NCBI GenBank assembly: GCA_038061335.1
Contig: JBBTZM010000005.1
Span: forward strand, 1 to 34,938
Source of the DNA: Patescibacteria group bacterium
GTDB lineage: Bacteria; Patescibacteriota; Minisyncoccia; UBA6257; GWB1-50-10
Reading direction: 5' to 3'
Length of the DNA: 34,938 bases
Shown: positions 3,069 to 34,105 of the stretch, piece after piece
How the letters are laid out: the number at the start of each line of letters is the position of its first letter
How positions within the stretch are numbered: position 1 is the first letter of the stretch
Program-made: the position numbers and the translations under genes
The notes under the pieces: model-generated
Seen by the model: only the letters and a program-made list of their open reading frames with translations
The model's database searches: none
Told to the model about the DNA's origin: nothing

Positions 3069-3228
3069 CGAATATGTAAACATTTAAATATGTAAATATA
3101 TAAATATGCAAATTTTTTCGGTTGCAGTACTTTTTGGAGCGGCATACCATCTCGTGCGAGACGTGCTGCAAATAGCGGGTATCCAAAATGATGTTTTACA
3201 TATTTAAATCTTTACATATTTAAATTCT
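3069..3228. repeat. inverted 'acatttaaatatgtaaa' word repeats flanking an about 80-nt unique core
   Basis: Left arm 3071-3113 (atatgtaaacatttaaatatgtaaatat...) and right arm 3194-3225 (ttttacatatttaaatctttacatatttaaat). Core stem is 3122-3130/3163-3171. A related word copy lies at 3697-3719. Confidence 0.7.
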
Positions 3229-5501: not shown

Positions 5502-7545
5502 CGTAAAGAATCCGAATATAAACTATCGGCGTCTCGCTGGCATCGCGACCGTCTATCTTGGGAGCGGTGTTTCCCCGAAAAAGCCATCTTCTCTCGGGCT
5601 TCGCCTCGGAGTCGGCGCGGGATTTTTTCTTCTCCTTCTTTTCGGAGGTGTGTTTCTTTTGGGGACGCGGCATCTAAAAAATGTTGCCGCGGAGAAGGGA
5701 GAACTCATCGCGAAAAATATGCTCGCCTCCATTCAGCTCATTCAGGAAATGAATCCGGAAGAGGCGAGGCGCGCGCTCGAAGAAAATCGGAAAGAATTAG
5801 AAGAACTTGAGAGAATGGTCCGGGGAGGAAAGAAGCAGGCGATTCTCGGGGGCTTGGGAGAGGTGTTTCCCGGAATCCGTCTTAGTGTAGGACTCTTCGG
5901 GAAAGTATCGGAATTTAATCTTACGTTTCTGAAGCTCACGGAAATTATGTCGGAACTGCAGGCAAAGGGATTCGACTATTTTATGCATGACGGCGCATCG
6001 TTTGTGGCGCTTCTTGAAAAATCCAAAGCCGCCATACGCGACCTTACGAAAGAAGCGGCGGAGATTCAAAATAAAAGCGCGGGGCTCGCGAGCATTTCGG
6101 AATCAATGGCGAAATTTAACGGCACATTTCGCGAAGCGTACGTGAAGTATACTTCGGAACTCCACGGATGGGATGCAGGCCTCGAAAGCATCATTACCCT
6201 TCTTAATTCCAAGGTGGATCGCCACATCCTTCTTATCTTCCACAATCCCTCGGAGATGCGGCCCGCGGGCGGGTTTATCGGCTCGTATGGAGACATTGTA
6301 GTCCGGGACGGGCAGATGCAGAGCATGGATGTAGGCGACATTTACTGGCCCGACCACCCGAATAATTTCGAGAGAAAAATTATTCCTCCGCTTCCGCTCC
6401 AAAAATTGACGAAGGATTGGGGCGCGCGGGACGCGAACTGGTTTTTCGACTTCCCCACTTCGGCAAAAATAGTGAGGGAATTTTTAGAATCCTCCAAGGT
6501 GTACACGGAAAAGAAGGTCGTGTTTGAGGGGGCGATTGCCATAAATACAAAGGTGTTGGGAAGCATATTGGAATTCGTGGGCCCGATAGAGGCGCCCGAA
6601 TATGAGCTTACCATTACAAAGGACAATTTTTTGGCGGAGCTTCAAAGAGAGGTCGAGATCGGACGCGACAAAGAGCCGGGCAAAAACCCCAAGCGTATTT
6701 TAAGCGTGATTACTCCGACAATTTTTGAGCGCCTGGGCAAACTCGGCGAAGTAGAAAAGAAGGCGCTTGTGGAGCGCGTGGGCGAACATGTGGAGAAAAA
6801 GGATATTATGCTCGCCATGAAGGACGCTACGCTCATGAGCTTCTTTGGCTCGCGAGAGATGGACGGGAGCGTGTACGAGCTCCCCACCGGATTTTGGGGC
6901 GCGTATCTTGGGGTCGTAAACGCCAATATCGGAGGGGAGAAAACAGACGCTTTCATGGAAGAAAAAATTACGGGAAAGATTGACGTGTCAAACGACGGGA
7001 GCTCGTTCGTTACGCTTGGGGTCGCGCGAGCCCACCACGGAAAGGATGAAAAGGACCGGTGGTATCGCGCGGAAAATAAAAATTTCATTCAGGTCTACGC
7101 GAATCCGGATTCGAGCATTGTGGGCGTGGAGGGGAATACGAAGGGCGTGAAGTTCGAAGGGAGGTATGATAAAAAAGTATATGAGGAGATAGAGGAGGTA
7201 AAAACAATTGAAGAAACCGCGGTGTACCTTACGGATAAGTCGCTTTGGACAATGGACGCGTTTGGCAAAAAGGTGTTCGCGACATGGTTCAACGTGCCCG
7301 CGGGCGAGGCGCGCACGCTTGGCCTGAAATACGAGATTGGAGGAGAGAGCAACAAGGACCTCGTGAAAGGAAAGCCGTACACCCTCATTTTTGAGAAGCA
7401 GTCGGGAGTCGAGAGCCCCGTCGGCATTGACCTTAGGGCGCCTTTTGGATTCGTCTGGCAGGAATCCGGGGAGTCGGTCTATCGTTTTGAACGCCCGAAT
7501 CCAAAGGCGCGGGAGATTGTGGAACTCCATCTTGTGAAAAAATAA
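5458..7545 (+). CDS. DUF4012 domain-containing membrane protein
   Basis: N-terminal TM segment (GAGFFLLLLFGGVFLLG) and the motif RPAGGFIGSYGDIVVRDG, which I recall as DUF4012-typical. Overlaps the upstream gene by 44 nt, so the start is uncertain. Confidence 0.7.
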   Translation: MQEVPKQNIIPVLVDVKNPNINYRRLAGIATVYLGSGVSPKKPSSLGLRLGVGAGFFLLLLFGGVFLLGTRHLKNVAAEKGELIAKNMLASIQLIQEMNPEEARRALEENRKELEELERMVRGGKKQAILGGLGEVFPGIRLSVGLFGKVSEFNLTFLKLTEIMSELQAKGFDYFMHDGASFVALLEKSKAAIRDLTKEAAEIQNKSAGLASISESMAKFNGTFREAYVKYTSELHGWDAGLESIITLLNSKVDRHILLIFHNPSEMRPAGGFIGSYGDIVVRDGQMQSMDVGDIYWPDHPNNFERKIIPPLPLQKLTKDWGARDANWFFDFPTSAKIVREFLESSKVYTEKKVVFEGAIAINTKVLGSILEFVGPIEAPEYELTITKDNFLAELQREVEIGRDKEPGKNPKRILSVITPTIFERLGKLGEVEKKALVERVGEHVEKKDIMLAMKDATLMSFFGSREMDGSVYELPTGFWGAYLGVVNANIGGEKTDAFMEEKITGKIDVSNDGSSFVTLGVARAHHGKDEKDRWYRAENKNFIQVYANPDSSIVGVEGNTKGVKFEGRYDKKVYEEIEEVKTIEETAVYLTDKSLWTMDAFGKKVFATWFNVPAGEARTLGLKYEIGGESNKDLVKGKPYTLIFEKQSGVESPVGIDLRAPFGFVWQESGESVYRFERPNPKAREIVELHLVKK

Positions 7546-9413
7546 TGAATATTCGGAACTTTTGCATCATTGCCCACATTGACCACGGCAAGTCCACGCT
7601 CGCGGACCGGTTTTTGGAACTTACGAATACCGTGGAGAAACGGAAAATGAAGGCCCAGCTTTTGGACCAGATGGAGCTTGAGCGCGAGCGGGGAATCACG
7701 ATTAAAATGGCCCCTGTGAGAATGATGTATCATTCTCACAGGGGCCATCCTGAGCGAAGCGAAGGATCCAGAGATCCTTCAGCAAGGCTTCAGGATGACG
7801 AAAAAAATCAAAAATTTGTTTTGAATTTGATAGACACTCCCGGCCACAGCGATTTTTCGTACGAAGTTTCCCGCGCCTTGCACGCGGTTGAGGGCGCTAT
7901 CCTTTTAGTGGACGCGACCCAGGGCATTCAGGCCCAGACCCTCGCGAACTTGCGCGCGGCCGAGGCCGCGGGCCTTACCATCATAGGGGCTCTAAACAAG
8001 GTGGACCTGAACCCCCCGGGAATGGACGACTTGACTTTGGAGCTCGCGGAACTCATTCACGCGGAGCCGGATGAAATTCACCGCGTTTCCGGAAAAACGG
8101 GGCAGGGCGTGGAACAACTTTTACAGGCGGTGGTAGAAAAGATCCCGCCTCCGTCAATCCGCGTCAATCCGCGTAATAATCCGCGTGAGTCCGCGATGCC
8201 CGCGAGGGCATTGGTTTTCGATTCTTTCTACGACAACCACAAGGGCATTGTGGCCTCGGTGCGGGTGATGAATGGCATATTTTTAGGAGGCAAGGAAACC
8301 ATATTTGTGGCAACGGAACGAAAGTGGAAGCCAAAGGAAATCGGTATATTTGCGCCTCAATGTACGCCAAAAGAAACGTTAGAGGAAGGAGAAATAGGGT
8401 ATATCGCGACCGGAGTAAAAGATGTGGAAGACATCAAGATCGGAGATACCGCAATCCAAGGAGTTCGCGAGCCGGATATGTCGCTCCTCCTCGCTGGCTA
8501 CAAAGAGCCAAGCCCCGTGGTCTTTATTTCGTTTTATCCGGAAGACGCGGACGAGCACGAGGAACTCGGTAAGGCGCTCCAGAAACTTCGTTTAACGGAT
8601 TCGGCAATGACTATAGAGCCGGATGCAAACGAGGTTTTGGGGCGCGGCTTCAAGGTTGGGTTTTTAGGGAGTTTGCATTTTGAAATTATCGCCGAGCGCC
8701 TGAAGCGGGAATTTGACATCGGGGTTTCGACGACCTTTCCTTCGGTTGCGTATCGCGTGAAAATAAAAGGAGAATGGAGCGTGATTACGAACCCCATGGA
8801 CCTGCCCCCGGACGCCGAAATAGTAGAAGAGCCAATCGTGCGGGTGGAGATTTTAATTCCGGAGACGCACGTCAATAGTTTTTTCGGATTTCAGGAGCAT
8901 TTCCGATTTGGAGCAATCGAAACCGAAACACAAGGGAAAAGAATGCTCATTCGCGCCATGATGCCCCTTTCTGAACTCATGAGCGACTTTGACGACAAAT
9001 TGAAATCCGCGACGCAAGGATATGCCTCTTTTAGTTATGAGGTTGCGGGATACGAGCGGGCCGACATGGTACGGGTGGATTTTTTGGTAGCCGGAGCGAT
9101 TATCCCGGGCATGAGCCGCCTCTTCCACAAAAGCACTTTTGAGAAGGAAGCGCGGAAAACCGTGGAGCGGCTAAAAGAACTCTTGTCTCGCCAGCAGTTT
9201 GCTCAGGCCATCCAGGCGAGCGCCTTGGGGCGGATTATCGCGCGCGAGAACATTCCGGCGCTTAGTAAAAATGTCACCGGACACCTGTATGGAGGGGACA
9301 GGACGAGAAAGATGAAACTCTGGAAAAAACAGAAAAGAGGCAAGGAGAAGCTGAAAGAACGGGCGCACGTGGAAATCACGCCGGAGGTGTTTCGTGAGCT
9401 CTTAAAAAAATAA
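7545..9413 (+). CDS. lepA: elongation factor 4 (LepA) carrying an in-frame 21-codon insertion
   Basis: AHIDHGKST (G1), DTPGH (G3), NKVD (G4) and a full-length LepA C-terminal domain. The TAATG start overlaps the stop of the upstream gene. Confidence 0.95.
   Translation: MNIRNFCIIAHIDHGKSTLADRFLELTNTVEKRKMKAQLLDQMELERERGITIKMAPVRMMYHSHRGHPERSEGSRDPSARLQDDEKNQKFVLNLIDTPGHSDFSYEVSRALHAVEGAILLVDATQGIQAQTLANLRAAEAAGLTIIGALNKVDLNPPGMDDLTLELAELIHAEPDEIHRVSGKTGQGVEQLLQAVVEKIPPPSIRVNPRNNPRESAMPARALVFDSFYDNHKGIVASVRVMNGIFLGGKETIFVATERKWKPKEIGIFAPQCTPKETLEEGEIGYIATGVKDVEDIKIGDTAIQGVREPDMSLLLAGYKEPSPVVFISFYPEDADEHEELGKALQKLRLTDSAMTIEPDANEVLGRGFKVGFLGSLHFEIIAERLKREFDIGVSTTFPSVAYRVKIKGEWSVITNPMDLPPDAEIVEEPIVRVEILIPETHVNSFFGFQEHFRFGAIETETQGKRMLIRAMMPLSELMSDFDDKLKSATQGYASFSYEVAGYERADMVRVDFLVAGAIIPGMSRLFHKSTFEKEARKTVERLKELLSRQQFAQAIQASALGRIIARENIPALSKNVTGHLYGGDRTRKMKLWKKQKRGKEKLKERAHVEITPEVFRELLKK
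7729..7797 (+). repeat. in-frame palindromic insertion inside lepA (two hairpins)
   Basis: 7729-7747 is the exact reverse complement of 7708-7726. 7746-7797 is an imperfect palindrome (catcctga...gaaggatc caga gatccttc...tcaggatg). It encodes HSHRGHPERSEGSRDPSARLQ between the G2 and G3 motifs. Confidence 0.8.
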
Positions 9414-9437: not shown

Positions 9438-9502
9438 AGGCCACTGGGCTCTGAAATCATCAAGACCGAAGAAATGTCCGATATCCAACATAGCGCTACG
9501 AT

Positions 9503-9540
9503 GTCCTCAAACTATCTGCATATGTGGATGGTTTGAGGAC
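9503..9540 (+). repeat. 38-nt hairpin element, copy 1
   Basis: gtcctcaaac-N18-gtttgaggac. Its reverse complement matches 21986-22023 at 36 of 38 positions. Confidence 0.85.
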
Positions 9541-9598
9541 AAGACAATGCCCTCTCCATCTCCTTTCTTTTTTTTATTTTCTTGCATATAATTCGAAT

Positions 9599-9883: not shown

Positions 9884-9954
9884 GCGAGTATGGTCTAGTG
9901 GTATGACACGAGCTTCCCAAGCTCGGAACGCGGGTTCGATCCCCGCTACTCGCA
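9884..9954 (+). tRNA. tRNA-Gly (anticodon CCC)
   Basis: Hand-folded cloverleaf: acceptor gcgagta/tactcgc, 3-bp D stem, anticodon stem cgagc/gctcg with loop ttCCCaa, T arm gcggg-ttcgatc-cccgc, discriminator a. No encoded CCA. Confidence 0.9.
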
Positions 9955-10052
9955 CAGAAGTCACCTTCGAGGCGTGGAAGAACGGAAAAGTATATTACGA
10001 CATTGCAGACATCCAGATATTGGGTTTGAAAATGGTATACTAAATTAACCCT

Positions 10053-14229: not shown

Positions 14230-17106
14230 ATGGGAAGAATCGACAAGAACAATCTGTTTTGGACATATTACAAAAATCTGAACCCTGCCCAGAAAAAAGC
14301 GGTTGATACCATTGAGGGCCCGGTCATGGTGGTCGCGGGTCCGGGGACGGGAAAGACGAGCGTTCTCACGCTTCGCATCGCCAATATCTTACGGAACACC
14401 GACATCGAGCCGGAAAATATTCTCGCGCTTACGTTTACGGACGCGGCGGCTTCTAATATGCGGCGACGCCTCGCCGAAATTATCGGCTCTCCGGCTTACC
14501 GCGTCGGCATACAGACATTTCACGGGTTTTGCAACGACCTTATCCAATCCTATCCCGAGGAATTTCCGCACATCGCGGGGTCCAAGCCCGCAACCGAAGG
14601 CGACCAACTCCGTCTCCTCGAGTATCTCGTGAAACATGGCGCATACATTACCCTCCGCCCGTTTGGGGACCTCTTTTTTTACGTCCGCGACATCCTGGGC
14701 GCCATAAGCGCGCTAAAGCGCGAAGGCGTCTCCCCCGAAGAATTTGCCCAGGTCATAAAAAAGGAGAAAAAGGAATTCGCGTCCATTCCCGAGCCAAAGC
14801 ATATCAAGGGTCCGCACAAAGGCCGCATGAAGGGAGTGTATGTGGAAGAAGAAAAGCGCATAAAAAAACATGCGGAACTCGCGCGTCTCTACAGGGCCTA
14901 TGAGGAAGAATTGCGGAAAAAAAGAATGTATGACTGGAACGACATGATCATGGAGACCCTTCGTGTGGTTTCGAAAAATAAAAACTTCCTCCGCATCCTG
15001 CAGGAAACCCATCAGTACGTGCTGGTGGACGAGCATCAGGACACCAATAACGCCCAAAACAAGGTCCTGGAACTGCTGTTGAACTTTCATAAAAATCCGA
15101 ACGTGTTCGTGGTGGGGGACGAGCGGCAGGCAATCTTCCGCTTCCAGGGGGCTTCCCTGGAAAACTTTTTGTATTTCAAAAAATGCTACCCTGGGGCAAA
15201 ACTCATCGTCTTGAAGGAAAACTACCGGTCCGAAGAAACAATCCTGAAAGCCGCGGGAAGCATTCTCCCCGGGAGTCCCCTTCAGGCCGCGAAAAAATCA
15301 CGCGCCGCGGAAAAAATAATTATCTATTCCTCGGAAAATGAAGAAACCGAAGCCGCGCTTGTGGCCCGCCTCGCAAGCGAAGACGTAAAAAAAGGCATAC
15401 AAGGCGAGGAAATAGCGATTCTTTGCAGGGAAAACAAGGATGCGGAAAAATATTCCCGCGCCCTTCAAAGAAAGGGAGTGCCCCACGGAATCGAATCCGA
15501 AAAAAACGTGCTGGAAGAAGACGTTGTCCGTGCCTTTATTCTCCTTCTTCGGGCAGTCGAGCGTCTGGGGAATGACGAACTCCTTGCCGAGGCCCTGCAT
15601 ATTCCCTGCCTTGAAGTCGAACCCCTTACTATATGGAAAATGGCAGAGGAGGCAAGAAGGGAAAAGAAACGGCTCTACGACGTGGTAAAAGAACGGGACC
15701 CGAAAACATATTCCCGCTTTTCCGCGTGGAAAACAAAGAGCAGATTCAAAACCCTGCCCGTGTTTTTGGAGGAAGCGCTTGAGGAATCCGGCCTGCTTTG
15801 GGAAGCGTTGAAAGAGGGAAGTTCGGAAAGCGTCGCGGCGCTCCGCGCGTTTTTTGAGGAGATAAAAAAGTTTCTTGAGGCCCGAAAAAAGGCAACGCTG
15901 AAGGACTTTCTCTCGCACCTCGAAACCCTGGAGCGGCACAACGTGGCAATAAAAAGAAAAAGAAAAAAGAGGCCCGGATGCGTCCGCGTTATGACCGCGC
16001 ACGGCGCCAAAGGCCTTGAATTCGATTCTGTCTATATCGTAGGAGCGTATGACGGCCACTGGGGAGGAAGGAAACAAAGGAATCGCCTGCCACTCCCTAA
16101 AGAAGCGGAAGAGGAGGACGGCGACGAAAGGCGGTTGTTTTACGTAGCCCTGACTCGAGCGAGAAAAAAAGCGAGCATAACCTATTCCAAAGAAAGCGCC
16201 TCCGGAAGAACCCTTCTCCCCAGCCGGTTTGTAAAAGAAATAGACGAGGCGGTGCGGGAGGAACAAGAAGACGCGGAAGGAGAGAAAGAAACCGGAGCAG
16301 GGATCTTCGCGGGGAAAAAGAAGACGGCGGAAAAAAAAGAAAAATCGTATTTGCGGGAGTTGTTTTACAAAGAGGGGCTTTCCGTAACCGCGCTCAATAA
16401 TTACATAAAATGTCCGTGGAGATATTTTTATTTGAACCTTGTGCGCGTGCCGAAGTTGCCCGAACCGCACCAGACCTATGGCATCGCGGTACACGCGGCC
16501 CTTCGGGATTTTTTTGAAAAACTGAAGCATGAGGAAGAAGGAACGGACTTTCTCGTGCGTCGCTTCACCGACCACTTGCGCCGCGCGCCCTTTCTGGAAA
16601 TTTTCGAAGCATGGGAAAAGCGCGGAAAGGAGGCCCTGCGGGGATACGGAGAGAAATACAAGGGCCATTGGAATACGAACGTGTTGACCGAGGTCGGAAT
16701 AAAGGGGATAGAAATCGCGAAAAACCTCACGATTCGGGGCAAGATAGATAAGATTGAGTTTTTGGGGAGCGCGGGGAGAGTAGCGGTTGTGGATTACAAA
16801 ACAGGGAAGCCAAAATCGCGCAAAGACGAAAATCTCGCGCGCCAGCTCGCGTTCTACGGCTTGCTCCTTCAAGAGTACAAAAATGGAAAGTATGCGATGG
16901 AAAAGGGAGTCCTGGACTTTGTGGAACCGAATGAACGGGGTATCTGGAAGCGCGAAGAATTTGAAATAGAGGAAACACAGAAAAAAGAACTGGTGGAACT
17001 CTTGAAAAAAACCGCGGACGAGATATTACATATGAAATTTTGGGATACGCGCTGTGAAGACAAGACCTGCAAATACTGCCGCCTCCGAAATTTTTTGGAA
17101 CAATAA
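14230..17106 (+). CDS. UvrD/PcrA-type helicase fused to a PD-(D/E)XK (Cas4/AddB-like, Cys-cluster) nuclease
   Basis: AGPGTGKTS, VLVDEHQDTN, VMTAHGAKGLEFDSVYIV. C-terminal CPWRYFY...IDKIEF...VVDYKTGK...CEDKTCKYC. TATAGT at 14218-14223 sits 6 nt before the ATG. Confidence 0.85.
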   Translation: MGRIDKNNLFWTYYKNLNPAQKKAVDTIEGPVMVVAGPGTGKTSVLTLRIANILRNTDIEPENILALTFTDAAASNMRRRLAEIIGSPAYRVGIQTFHGFCNDLIQSYPEEFPHIAGSKPATEGDQLRLLEYLVKHGAYITLRPFGDLFFYVRDILGAISALKREGVSPEEFAQVIKKEKKEFASIPEPKHIKGPHKGRMKGVYVEEEKRIKKHAELARLYRAYEEELRKKRMYDWNDMIMETLRVVSKNKNFLRILQETHQYVLVDEHQDTNNAQNKVLELLLNFHKNPNVFVVGDERQAIFRFQGASLENFLYFKKCYPGAKLIVLKENYRSEETILKAAGSILPGSPLQAAKKSRAAEKIIIYSSENEETEAALVARLASEDVKKGIQGEEIAILCRENKDAEKYSRALQRKGVPHGIESEKNVLEEDVVRAFILLLRAVERLGNDELLAEALHIPCLEVEPLTIWKMAEEARREKKRLYDVVKERDPKTYSRFSAWKTKSRFKTLPVFLEEALEESGLLWEALKEGSSESVAALRAFFEEIKKFLEARKKATLKDFLSHLETLERHNVAIKRKRKKRPGCVRVMTAHGAKGLEFDSVYIVGAYDGHWGGRKQRNRLPLPKEAEEEDGDERRLFYVALTRARKKASITYSKESASGRTLLPSRFVKEIDEAVREEQEDAEGEKETGAGIFAGKKKTAEKKEKSYLRELFYKEGLSVTALNNYIKCPWRYFYLNLVRVPKLPEPHQTYGIAVHAALRDFFEKLKHEEEGTDFLVRRFTDHLRRAPFLEIFEAWEKRGKEALRGYGEKYKGHWNTNVLTEVGIKGIEIAKNLTIRGKIDKIEFLGSAGRVAVVDYKTGKPKSRKDENLARQLAFYGLLLQEYKNGKYAMEKGVLDFVEPNERGIWKREEFEIEETQKKELVELLKKTADEILHMKFWDTRCEDKTCKYCRLRNFLEQ

Positions 17107-21815: not shown

Positions 21816-21840
21816 TATCCCGCCCACAATTATGATAAAG

Positions 21841-21911
21841 TCGGGGTAGGCGGAATCGAACCGCCACTACATACACCCCATGCATGCGTACTACCACTAT
21901 ACTATACCCCG
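21841..21911 (-). tRNA. tRNA-Pro (anticodon GGG)
   Basis: Hand-folded from the reverse complement: acceptor cggggta/taccccg, D arm gtat-agtggta-gtac, anticodon stem catgc/gtatg with loop atGGGgt, T arm ggcgg-ttcgatt-ccgcc, discriminator a. No encoded CCA. Confidence 0.9.
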
Positions 21912-21985: not shown

Positions 21986-22023
21986 GTCCTCAAACTATCC
22001 ACATATGCAGTTAGTTTGAGGAC
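21986..22023 (-). repeat. 38-nt hairpin element, copy 2 (inverted relative to copy 1)
   Basis: gtcctcaaactatccacatatgcagttagtttgaggac. The reverse complement matches 9503-9540 at 36 of 38 positions. Confidence 0.85.
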
Positions 22024-22104: not shown

Positions 22105-22190
22105 ACAAATGGTACGAATGATACTAATGATACGAATAAAATTCATTTGTATTATTCGTATCATTAATACAATTCGTATATTGGTATCAT
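22105..22190. repeat. long imperfect inverted repeat of 'tacgaat/attcgta' words upstream of lexA
   Basis: Left arm caaatggtacgaatgatactaatgatacgaataa, right arm ttattcgtatcattaatacaattcgtatattggtatcat. 22149-22193 is nearly identical to 26500-26544. Confidence 0.8.
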
Positions 22191-31956: not shown

Positions 31957-32026
31957 ATTCAAAATTTTCTTGAATCAGGGCACAGGAGCGCAGGTTCCTG
32001 TGTCCAAATTCGCGAAGATTGAAAGT

Positions 32027-32103
32027 GAGCTACGAATGTACGAATAGCATACGAATATACGAATCCGATTCGTATATTCGTACAAGATTTGTACATTCGT
32101 ATA
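32027..32103. repeat. 'tacgaat' word hairpin between tuf and rpsJ
   Basis: Left arm 32031-32064, loop ccg, right arm 32068-32101. 32027-32064 matches 34031-34068 at 37 of 38 positions. Confidence 0.85.
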
Positions 32104-32110
32104 TCAGGGC

Positions 32111-33699: not shown

Positions 33700-34032
33700 A
33701 TGGGTATTTTCAAAAAACAACCGAATAAAGAGAAAAAAAATGAGTCCCTCACCTTGAAAAAGGTTTCGCATTGGATAGAGCGGCCGTGGCTCAGCGAAAA
33801 AGCGACTGATTTGAAGGAGGCAAACGCCTATGTATTTAAGACGCGCCTCGATGCCGGGAAAACGGAAATTAAAAAAGAAATAGAGGCGCGATACGGCGTT
33901 CGCGTCCAGGGAGTGCGCGTCATACGGAGGATGGGGAAGGCGAAACGCTTCGGCAAACACGTTGGACACCGCGCGAATACCAAAAAGGCAATCGTGAAAT
34001 TGCAGAAAGGAGATACCATAGACATCATATGA
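33700..34032 (+). CDS. rplW: 50S ribosomal protein L23
   Basis: Position between rplD and rplB. Contains YVFKTRLDAGKTEIKKEIEARYGVRV and KKAIVKLQKGDTID. Confidence 0.9.
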   Translation: MGIFKKQPNKEKKNESLTLKKVSHWIERPWLSEKATDLKEANAYVFKTRLDAGKTEIKKEIEARYGVRVQGVRVIRRMGKAKRFGKHVGHRANTKKAIVKLQKGDTIDII

Positions 34033-34105
34033 GCTACGAATATACGAATAGCATACGAATATACGAATTTGTATATTCGTAGAAGATTCGTAAATTCGTA
34101 GATCA
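34031..34105. repeat. 'tacgaat' word hairpin between rplW and rplB
   Basis: Left arm 34035-34068, right arm up to 34100, then ATCAG. It begins on the rplW stop codon. Confidence 0.85.

Follow-up and report, generated by a model that had tools for sequence, protein, structure and literature searches.

An in-frame palindromic insert was identified in lepA, the gene of translation elongation factor 4, within a stretch of 34,938 nucleotides from a Patescibacteria genome (contig JBBTZM010000005.1 of assembly GCA_038061335.1; the whole stretch is referred to as the window). On balance, sequence comparison leads us to regard this segment, which occupies the turn joining strands beta2 and beta3 in the G domain of LepA, as probably a genuine remnant, still in frame, of mobile palindromic DNA. 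It is most probably translated. Within a clade of Patescibacteria, the beta2-beta3 turn has taken up inserts repeatedly. Hairpins formed with the adjoining host codons were detected at both junctions, and their covariation together with the changing peptide speaks for copying of the DNA itself, by fold-back, template switching or homing-like conversion, and against selection on the peptide.

The insert and its host gene

The lepA gene (7545-9413, forward strand) encodes 622 amino acids and was assigned from its open reading frame (ORF), a family model, structures and synteny. It scored 654 bits against the equivalog TIGR01393 (cut-off 533.9), and LepA_C (PF06421) was found in all homologues. 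The best solved relatives of the product were the LepA/EF4 structures 2ywe, 5imq and 3cb4, which aligned end to end. The gene order DUF4012-lepA-DivIC was common to the window and its relatives, indicating that the lepA genes of these relatives are orthologues.

The extra peptide H63-K90 (7731-7814, forward strand) was located by homologue alignment between the conserved residues Y62 and F91, the anchors of beta2 and beta3. It is in frame and separates switch I from G3, as had been proposed in the initial annotation, and the GTPase motifs G1-G4 (AHIDHGKS, GITIK, DTPGH and NKVD) are all intact, their columns being invariant in two homologue alignments. A 21-residue gap in the Aquifex LepA (2ywe) coincides exactly with the insert. 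The AlphaFold (AF2) model of the window LepA reached a mean predicted local distance difference test (pLDDT) score of 86.6 and placed beta2 at residues 57-63 and beta3 at 90-97, with residues 64-89 as coil and a short helix (82-87) at a pLDDT of 63-72. In this model the extra peptide is a lower-confidence loop with a short helix between the two confident strands, the position at which a surface loop had been suspected.

At the DNA level three palindromic features were distinguished, all on the forward strand. The 5' junction hairpin (7707-7748) consists of the host codons M55-A-P-V-R-M-M(1-2) at 7707-7726, a loop of 2 nt and an inverted copy at 7729-7748, which translates as (Y)HSHRGH. Its arms are 20 nt long and 100% complementary. 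The initial annotation had described a perfect palindrome of 19 bp; its perfection was confirmed, with one base more on each side, and the first part of the insert is indeed an exact inverted copy of the adjacent MAPVRM codons. The second feature is a repeat copy (7746-7799), composed of a left arm CATCCTGAGCGAAGCGAAGGATC (7746-7768), the loop CAGA (7769-7772) and a degenerate right arm GATCCTTCAGCAAGGCTTCAGGATGAC (7773-7799); it translates as HPERSEGSRDPSARLQDD and has CAT 7746-7748 in common with the 5' hairpin. The imperfect palindrome reported earlier at 7746-7797 was recovered here with two perfect 8-nt arm pairs, the outer CATCCTGA/TCAGGATG (7746-7753/7790-7797) and the inner GAAGGATC/GATCCTTC (7761-7768/7773-7780), between which complementarity is only partial. 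The third feature, absent from the earlier description, is a decayed 3' junction hairpin (7804-7828) in which the insert end AAAATCAAAA (7804-7813) pairs with the host V-L-N-(L) codons TTTTGAATTT (7819-7828). It is 90% complementary and scored 9/12 in the arm comparison.

The 116-nt insert region folds at -60.9 kcal/mol, compared with -27.2 +/- 3.7 for 200 dinucleotide shuffles (z = -9.0), none of which folded as well. By coordinate comparison, the lepA palindrome is the only one among the long perfect inverted repeats of the window that falls inside a conserved coding region. Searches of Rfam returned nothing except two tRNAs for the whole window at gathering thresholds, and only chance matches to hairpins like those of microRNAs and small nucleolar RNAs for 7600-7900 at permissive E-values.

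Recurrent inserts and junction hairpins in lepA

The homologue set comprised the nearest 120 LepA proteins, from Patescibacteria with source names including Jorgensenbacteria, Brennerbacteria and Paceibacterota, and the spacing from GITIK to DTPGH was measured in the 119 carrying both motifs. A spacing of 25 residues was the most frequent (58 proteins), followed by 27-62 (44 proteins), 21 (11 proteins), 173-182 (five proteins) and 23 (one protein). The window has a spacing of 47, that is, 22 or 26 codons more than its nearest uninserted relatives (25 or 21); the 21 additional codons stated initially hold against E. coli and Aquifex, and the larger figures apply within its own clade. In-frame extra residues at the insert site of the window were found in 49 of the 119 homologues, and in five of these they contain a complete GxxExxY domain. 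Ten further inserted alleles, all in frame, were detected in a metagenome sample. The DNA of inserted alleles was analyzed in 19 distinct alleles, plus L218.

Inserted alleles of the MAPVRM subclade followed one plan: host beta2 codons, an inverted copy, cargo, an inverted copy of the beta3 codons, and the host beta3 codons. The cargo differed between alleles. In L001, L216 and L217 it is a nuclease ORF with inverted-repeat flanks of its own (peptides TETRKDAE, INADNDADQRG and PRESA/PRKSA), while P0001, P0052 and P0105 carry leftovers of such flanks. Many inserted alleles contain AT-rich low-complexity palindromes, and the window, L002, L213, L214 and L215 contain a copy of the other palindrome, a repeat of the HPERSEGS type. 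Exchange of cargo was evident among close relatives. P0002/L001 and P0001/L004 each share 86% identity with the window once the insert region is set aside; the former carries the nuclease and the latter only HPRASAQVEY, a leftover of the right flank of the nuclease element together with the 3' hairpin. The insert site of P0004 is empty, and P0105 resembles P0043 minus the nuclease core. The more distant inserted alleles L007, L010, L014, L015 and L017 are without flank-derived hairpins, and some of them (L010, L014) have internal palindromes.

The protein P0092, which starts inside the nuclease domain, was considered as a frame-broken allele and rejected. In the contigs L086 and L087, runs of N mark scaffold gaps that coincide exactly with the 5' hairpin of the nuclease-bearing lepA and split the gene call; palindromes thus break assemblies and give rise to false truncated proteins such as this one.

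The 5' hairpin is a perfect 20 bp in the window, L002 and L213 and measures 9-11 bp in L001, L216, L217 and L011. The 3' hairpin is perfect over 12-15 bp in L001, L012, L022, L213 and L218 and measures 11 bp in L037, L216 and L217, which explains the peptides SE(Y/F)ILNL, AQVEYILNL and KQ(E/K)FVLNL that recur in the protein list. Between the window and L002, three synonymous differences were found in the host codons of the 5' arm (GCC/GCT, CCT/CCC and GTG/GTA). All three differences from L002 and L213 are compensated in the insert arm, whereby the peptide HSHRGH becomes HSYGSH, a non-conservative change. The variable codon after Met60 (ATGAT, ATGGT or ATGC) is also matched in the insert arm (ATCAT, ACCAT or GCAT). 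A plain lineage-specific loop, which the initial annotation had named as the alternative to an insertion, does not describe these orthologues, since L002 and L213 also carry palindromic DNA and their peptide differs from that of the window exactly where pairing demands.

Five pairs with 10 cells changed on both sides were counted in the 5' helix, and five pairs with 17 such cells in the 3' helix. For both helices, all 500 shuffles stayed below the observed values of the covariation score, of the percentage of paired cells and of the count of cells with a double change; the number of pairs with a double change was unexceptional, being reached in 33 (5') and 192 (3') of 500 shuffles. When the registers were slid, pairing dropped to 18-50%. 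Arms were complementary to their own partner at 10.8 of 12 positions, against 8.6 of 12 across alleles, a difference matched by none of 20,000 permutations. The arms are exact reverse complements of adjacent sequence and the compensatory changes are Watson-Crick double changes, as is characteristic of template switching. Perfect Watson-Crick arms combined with a freely changing peptide argue against selection on the peptide and favor copying at the DNA level. A universal native quasi-palindrome that was later perfected was considered as the source of the hairpins and discarded, because uninserted alleles displayed only occasional weak complementarity between beta2 and beta3 (e.g., L013).

A second in-frame, repeat-derived insert, SIRVNPRNNPRESAMPA, was located at 8154-8196 on the forward strand (to 8208 with a mini-hairpin), in the linker that connects the G domain with domain II. 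Three direct copies of AATCCGCGT make it up, a unit that also forms the inverted repeats flanking the GxxExxY element of L001 and L217. The linker between IPPP and RALVFDSFY is strongly variable in length among the homologues, and pLDDT falls below 50 at residues 207-212. At this site L001 has a solo pair of nuclease-element flanks and L215 has the other repeat. The mini-hairpin after the insert (ATGCCC-GCGA-GGGCAT) takes in the host codons R-A-L, and its stem differs with the host codons, being ATGCCC/GGGCAT in the window and L004 and GAGCTC/GAGCTC in L002. With stems of only 6-8 bp, this hairpin modestly supports the view that flank copying is general. The heptamer ATCCGCG occurs 14 times in the window, against about four occurrences expected.

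The lepA genes of the window and L002 share 71% protein identity and 37% identity at fourfold sites, and those of L002 and L213 share 68% and 37%; the fourfold-site values among these three are close to saturation. In all three comparisons the insert region was the most similar 75-nt segment of the whole gene, with 73/75 identical positions between L002 and L213 (gene mean 49.9, standard deviation 6.9) and 68/75 between the window and L002. L002 and L213 share 79 nt with two differences, reaching from the host GITIKMAPVRM codons via the hairpin into the left palindrome arm, and the left repeat arm is identical over 24 nt among all three. The close relatives of the window bear other cargo, and the more distant L002, L213, L214 and L215 bear the cargo of the window. 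This island of identity and the distribution of cargo suggest recent exchange between lineages, by transfer or by conversion that took in flanking codons, or, equally well, strong constraint at the nucleotide level; passive decay of an ancient insert does not fit them.

The palindromic repeat and the GxxExxY nuclease

The 19-mer core of the repeat, CTGAGCGAAGCGAAGRATC, was recovered without mismatch from at least 120 genome loci of species representatives, distributed in Acidobacteriota, Nitrospirota, Chloroflexota, Bacteroidota, Gemmatimonadota, Firmicutes, Verrucomicrobiota, Cyanobacteria, Gracilibacteria, Saccharimonadales and others, and also matches 76 IMG/VR viral contigs (L219-L294). 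The assumption that peptides of the PERSEGS/LQDD type are translations of a widespread palindromic repeat was thereby borne out. From 126 instances in other genomes a conserved 28-nt arm with the consensus TGTCATYCTGAGCGAAGCGAAGRATCTC was derived, and a partner arm was recognizable in 55 of them, mostly 10-50 nt away. The arm contains GCGAAGC, which we take to be a very stable DNA mini-hairpin. It is translated as HPERSEGS, VILSEAKDL, ILRFAQDD or SLRMT. Some copies are nested in outer arms CAGGCTGCGGAAAAA...TTTTTCCGCAGCCTG, and short tandem duplications of GTCATCCTGAGC plus about 8 nt were observed upstream of the repeat (e.g., L105, L115, L119 and L155). Neither the repeat sequence, nor its typical peptides, nor a name for it was found in the literature searched.

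In-frame copies were also present in a sigma-54 activator, RibF, RsmE and a PdxK-like kinase (L106, L176, L205 and L170, respectively), all verified with Pfam, and the likeness to Rickettsia palindromic elements (RPEs) drawn in the initial annotation therefore extends to copies in frame inside real genes elsewhere. These copies from other phyla fall in linkers of their host proteins. The sigma-54 activator, from Bacteroidales, has two copies, one in each inter-domain linker, and the copy in RibF sits between the FAD synthetase and flavokinase domains. In the lepA of L215 a lineage-specific variant of the left arm, GTCATCCWGAACAYAGTGAAGGATCTG (HPEHSEGS), occupies both variable sites (~1690-1720 and 2116-2143), indicating that the repeat multiplies within genomes. 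The right arm in lepA alleles is always read QDD or QND, where the canonical arm in the HPERSEGS frame has TGA, which indicates a filter for an open frame.

Other palindromes were observed in the window. One of the type TGTCCTCAAACTATC...GATAGTTTGAGGACA has two intergenic copies, at 9502-9541 just downstream of lepA near tRNA-Gly (9884-9955) and at 21986-22023 adjoining tRNA-Pro (21840-21911). Long AT-rich imperfect intergenic palindromes built from the units TACGAATA and TAAATATG lie at 3071-3225, 22113-22178, 32026-32106 and 34030-34105; one example is directly downstream of tuf, and those at 32026 and 34030 are clear relatives of each other. These AT-rich palindromes are similar to the low-complexity cargo of lepA inserts in other genomes of the candidate phyla radiation (CPR).

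The nuclease domain, which the window lacks, was recognized in P0002 by TIGR04256 (GxxExxY) with 122.7 bits (cut-off 35). In all five LepA-embedded PF13366 domains the GxxExxY and PD...E-x-K motifs are intact and in frame between beta2 and beta3. The model of the GxxExxY protein (pLDDT 93.8) was closest to Cas4 SSO0001 (E = 4.5e-4, TM 0.54), followed by lambda-exonuclease and RecB-type nucleases, and the GxxExxY protein is thus a minimal PD-(D/E)XK nuclease. A relationship to T7 endonuclease I and junction resolvases was considered but found no support (sequence E = 0.5; Cas4 as best match of the fold search). In the literature searched, GxxExxY/PDDEXK_3 is listed only as 'function unknown'. 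The best 120 of 989 GxxExxY homologues are nearly all free-standing small genes of 125-155 amino acids in intergenic positions, and among these 120 the only in-frame fusions with other host genes were LepA fragments. Only the GTP_EFTU, PDDEXK_3 and LepA domains are recorded for P0002, with no intein around the nuclease, and no Rfam intron was found in the window, to which that search applied. A link between the repeat and the nuclease was rejected, as a hidden Markov model of the five LepA-embedded domains had no match in six-frame ORFs of 120 repeat loci.

The LepA with embedded nuclease in L001/P0002 (GCA_030695805.1) is named 'GxxExxY protein', and its metagenome-assembled genome is labelled Nanoarchaeota. 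The order DUF4012-lepA-DivIC and 79% identity to the window LepA indicate that this contig belongs to Patescibacteria, and the record is probably mis-binned or mislabelled.

The GxxExxY protein might be a homing-type endonuclease, carried as an in-frame domain without intron or intein, that cuts empty lepA at the beta2-beta3 turn. The hairpins would then be scars of break repair or parts of its recognition structure, and the insert of the window would be what remained once the nuclease ORF had been lost and another repeat had taken its place. We consider this possible, if doubtful; it is compatible with the explanation favored here and overlaps it in part. A homing role is suggested by position, patchy distribution and leftovers. 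The nuclease sits at the identical site in five LepA proteins that are 56-79% identical to that of the window, with intact motifs and neither a stop nor a separate start, and it has its own inverted-repeat flanks. Solo-flank leftovers occur at the same site (P0001, P0052 and P0105) and at the second lepA site of L001, the distribution among close relatives is patchy, the island of identity takes in flanking host codons, and the junction YHSHRG is common to the window and the nuclease allele P0002. It is less easily reconciled with a fold nearest the Cas4 and lambda-exonuclease types and not known homing endonucleases (the match to I-Bth0305I had E = 0.24), with the free-standing intergenic genes that make up nearly all of the best 120 homologues, and with an island of identity between two repeat-bearing alleles, not nuclease alleles.

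Going further, CPR genomes may hold an undescribed selfish element, although we regard this as rather unlikely. Such an element would settle in frame in permissive loops of essential genes without intron or intein, be driven by a GxxExxY PD-(D/E)XK nuclease made as a domain of the host protein and, through its integration or maintenance, duplicate both target flanks in inverted and not direct orientation, which would yield the hairpin junctions; the 28-nt arm would be a second, non-autonomous passenger that uses the same entry route with a sequence-specific partner protein.

Origin of the insert and comparison with known systems

If the insert is a remnant of mobile palindromic DNA, as we prefer to read it, processes acting on the DNA itself would have made its junction hairpins and kept them free of mismatches. 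Candidates are fold-back (snap-back) synthesis that starts from a break, and intrastrand template switching during replication; one event of the latter kind is known to create or repair a perfect hairpin and to change several bases in a compensatory manner (PMC8794818). The cargo enclosed by the hairpins may have been copied from repeat copies elsewhere, or obtained from another allele by homing-like conversion. Selection would act only as a filter, by which the frame is kept, the TGA of the canonical right arm is avoided and the loop is a hydrophilic one at the surface; LepA would then stay functional and the insert would be selfish or neutral to the host. The fold-back signature noticed initially at the 5' junction is present there as an inverted flank copy, and in fact at both junctions, so a fold-back mechanism of insertion may be proposed from the arrangement. 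A UvrD-type helicase fused to a PD-(D/E)XK domain (PDDEXK_1), AddA/AdnA-like, is encoded at 14230-17106; it belongs to break processing and would be relevant if the junctions stem from break repair.

Several points weigh against this reading. Inserted alleles were found via intact proteins or protein patterns, a route by which frame-broken alleles would escape. The covariation sets comprised only 6 and 10 alleles, selected because they have the hairpin; for the 3' set the arms alone were aligned, and the shuffle control takes no account of phylogeny. Flank-derived junction hairpins were not seen by eye at the repeat inside another gene (L106), and the free-standing GxxExxY genes L208 and L211 have only weak flanking inverted repeats, unlike lepA; the hairpins may thus be a peculiarity of lepA and not of the elements. 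No GxxExxY gene was found within 8 kb of the 120 repeat loci. As for mobility in this genome, the palindrome is single in the 35-kb window (no second match at up to 3 mismatches), which contains neither a transposase nor a GxxExxY gene. The nucleotide conservation of the insert could equally mean a host function at the RNA or DNA level.

Such a function, in which the hairpins are RNA or DNA structures selected for the host (an RNase III site, or a ribosome-pausing element tuning LepA expression or G-domain folding) and the peptide is a by-product, seems unlikely to us. It would account for the very stable fold (z = -9), for the compensatory changes in both helices and for an insert whose nucleotide sequence is better conserved than any other part of the gene although its peptide is not, and a perfect 20-bp helix is of sufficient length for RNase III. 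However, 70 of the 119 close homologues are without insert and the inserted ones differ wholly in cargo and length, which indicates that LepA needs no uniform structure there. One-sided G-U states, which would be tolerated under selection on RNA, were nearly absent in both helices. Moreover, the hairpins are decayed or absent in L214, L215, L007, L010 and L014-L017, that at the 3' junction of the window is itself decayed, and in other phyla the core repeat is found in all sorts of contexts.

Removal of the segment before or during translation, as an intron, an intein or a bypassed stretch (as in T4 gene 60 and mitochondrial byp), is very improbable. Hairpins at both junctions adjoining conserved codons recall such systems, but all 49 extended homologues and all inserted DNA alleles are in frame and free of stops, including a 93-residue stretch and the nuclease alleles, and the right arm is altered to QDD in place of the canonical TGA. 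There was no Rfam intron or ribozyme match and no Hint or intein family in P0002, and an element of this length leaves no room for a ribozyme. That assembly or amplification produced a chimeric inverted repeat, an artefact raised as a possibility at the outset, is more improbable still and can be set aside: although assemblers struggle here and two contigs of one relative have N-gaps exactly at the 5' hairpin, the same architecture recurs with compensated lineage differences in independent NCBI, ENA, JGI and Logan assemblies of different organisms (LepA 57-86% identical), and the gene runs on normally on either side of the insert.

Among the remaining readings, that of in-frame mobile palindromic DNA has consequences beyond this gene. 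The translation factor that harbors the hot spot is universal, and over short evolutionary distances the occupant of the site changes between a complete nuclease domain, decayed remains of it and an unrelated repeat. The flank-derived hairpins would be a natural sequence record of hairpin creation and correction at the DNA level under strong protein constraint; since host codons change only synonymously and the insert arm follows, DNA copying can be separated from selection on RNA structure more cleanly than in RNA genes. In practical terms, such inserts inflate and mis-name proteins, as with the LepA called 'GxxExxY protein', and the hairpin causes breaks in contigs. A sequence of 19 nt that is exact across phyla and viral contigs merits a name and an explanation.

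Compared with known systems, the lepA inserts share single traits with several. Like bypass elements, they are short hairpin-forming inserts in a coding region beside conserved codons. In bypass elements, however, the frame is broken or interrupted by a stop, and the take-off codon matches the landing codon; every lepA allele is open and in frame. Like homing endonuclease genes, the nuclease ORF occupies one exact site of a conserved essential gene, is patchily distributed and decays to remnants; it differs in being read through as a LepA domain, with no Hint domain, splice-junction residues or intron, and in its Cas4/RecB-like PD-(D/E)XK fold. The hairpins correspond to template-switch products in being reverse-complement copies of their neighbors, with multi-base compensation and without G-U intermediates (PMC8794818). 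Template switching has been described for rRNA and other RNA genes and in mutation spectra, and not as the bracket of a mobile insert in a protein-coding gene.

The repeat itself resembles repetitive extragenic palindromic (REP) sequences and bacterial interspersed mosaic elements in being a short, highly conserved imperfect palindrome that is mostly intergenic, has many copies and is sometimes nested. REPs, however, are genus-specific, tied to REP-associated tyrosine transposases and extragenic by definition, whereas this arm spans phyla; no associated transposase was present in the window, to which that search was confined.

The closest parallel is with the RPEs, short palindromic repeats that have repeatedly entered unrelated protein-coding genes in frame, where the fold tolerates the added peptide (reviewed in PMC10969869), and with intragenic miniature inverted-repeat transposable elements. 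Here, too, the repeat is multi-copy, lies in frame in unrelated genes and occupies a surface loop of LepA. The likeness is one of arrangement. The repeat in lepA has a far wider host range (many phyla and viral contigs), its unit is a 28-nt arm and not a ~150-bp element encoding a conserved peptide, and its flanks in lepA are inverted host copies; no direct target-site duplication was noted, without a systematic search for one. In-frame palindromic inserts in CPR were not found in the literature searched, and three features appear not to have been described: the inverted flank duplication with covariation, the read-through nuclease domain at the same site, and the cross-phylum repeat. The inserts are an RPE-like phenomenon in a new host group: as in Rickettsia, where this is best known, palindromic repeats would colonize essential genes in frame in Patescibacteria too and, for this repeat, in several other phyla.

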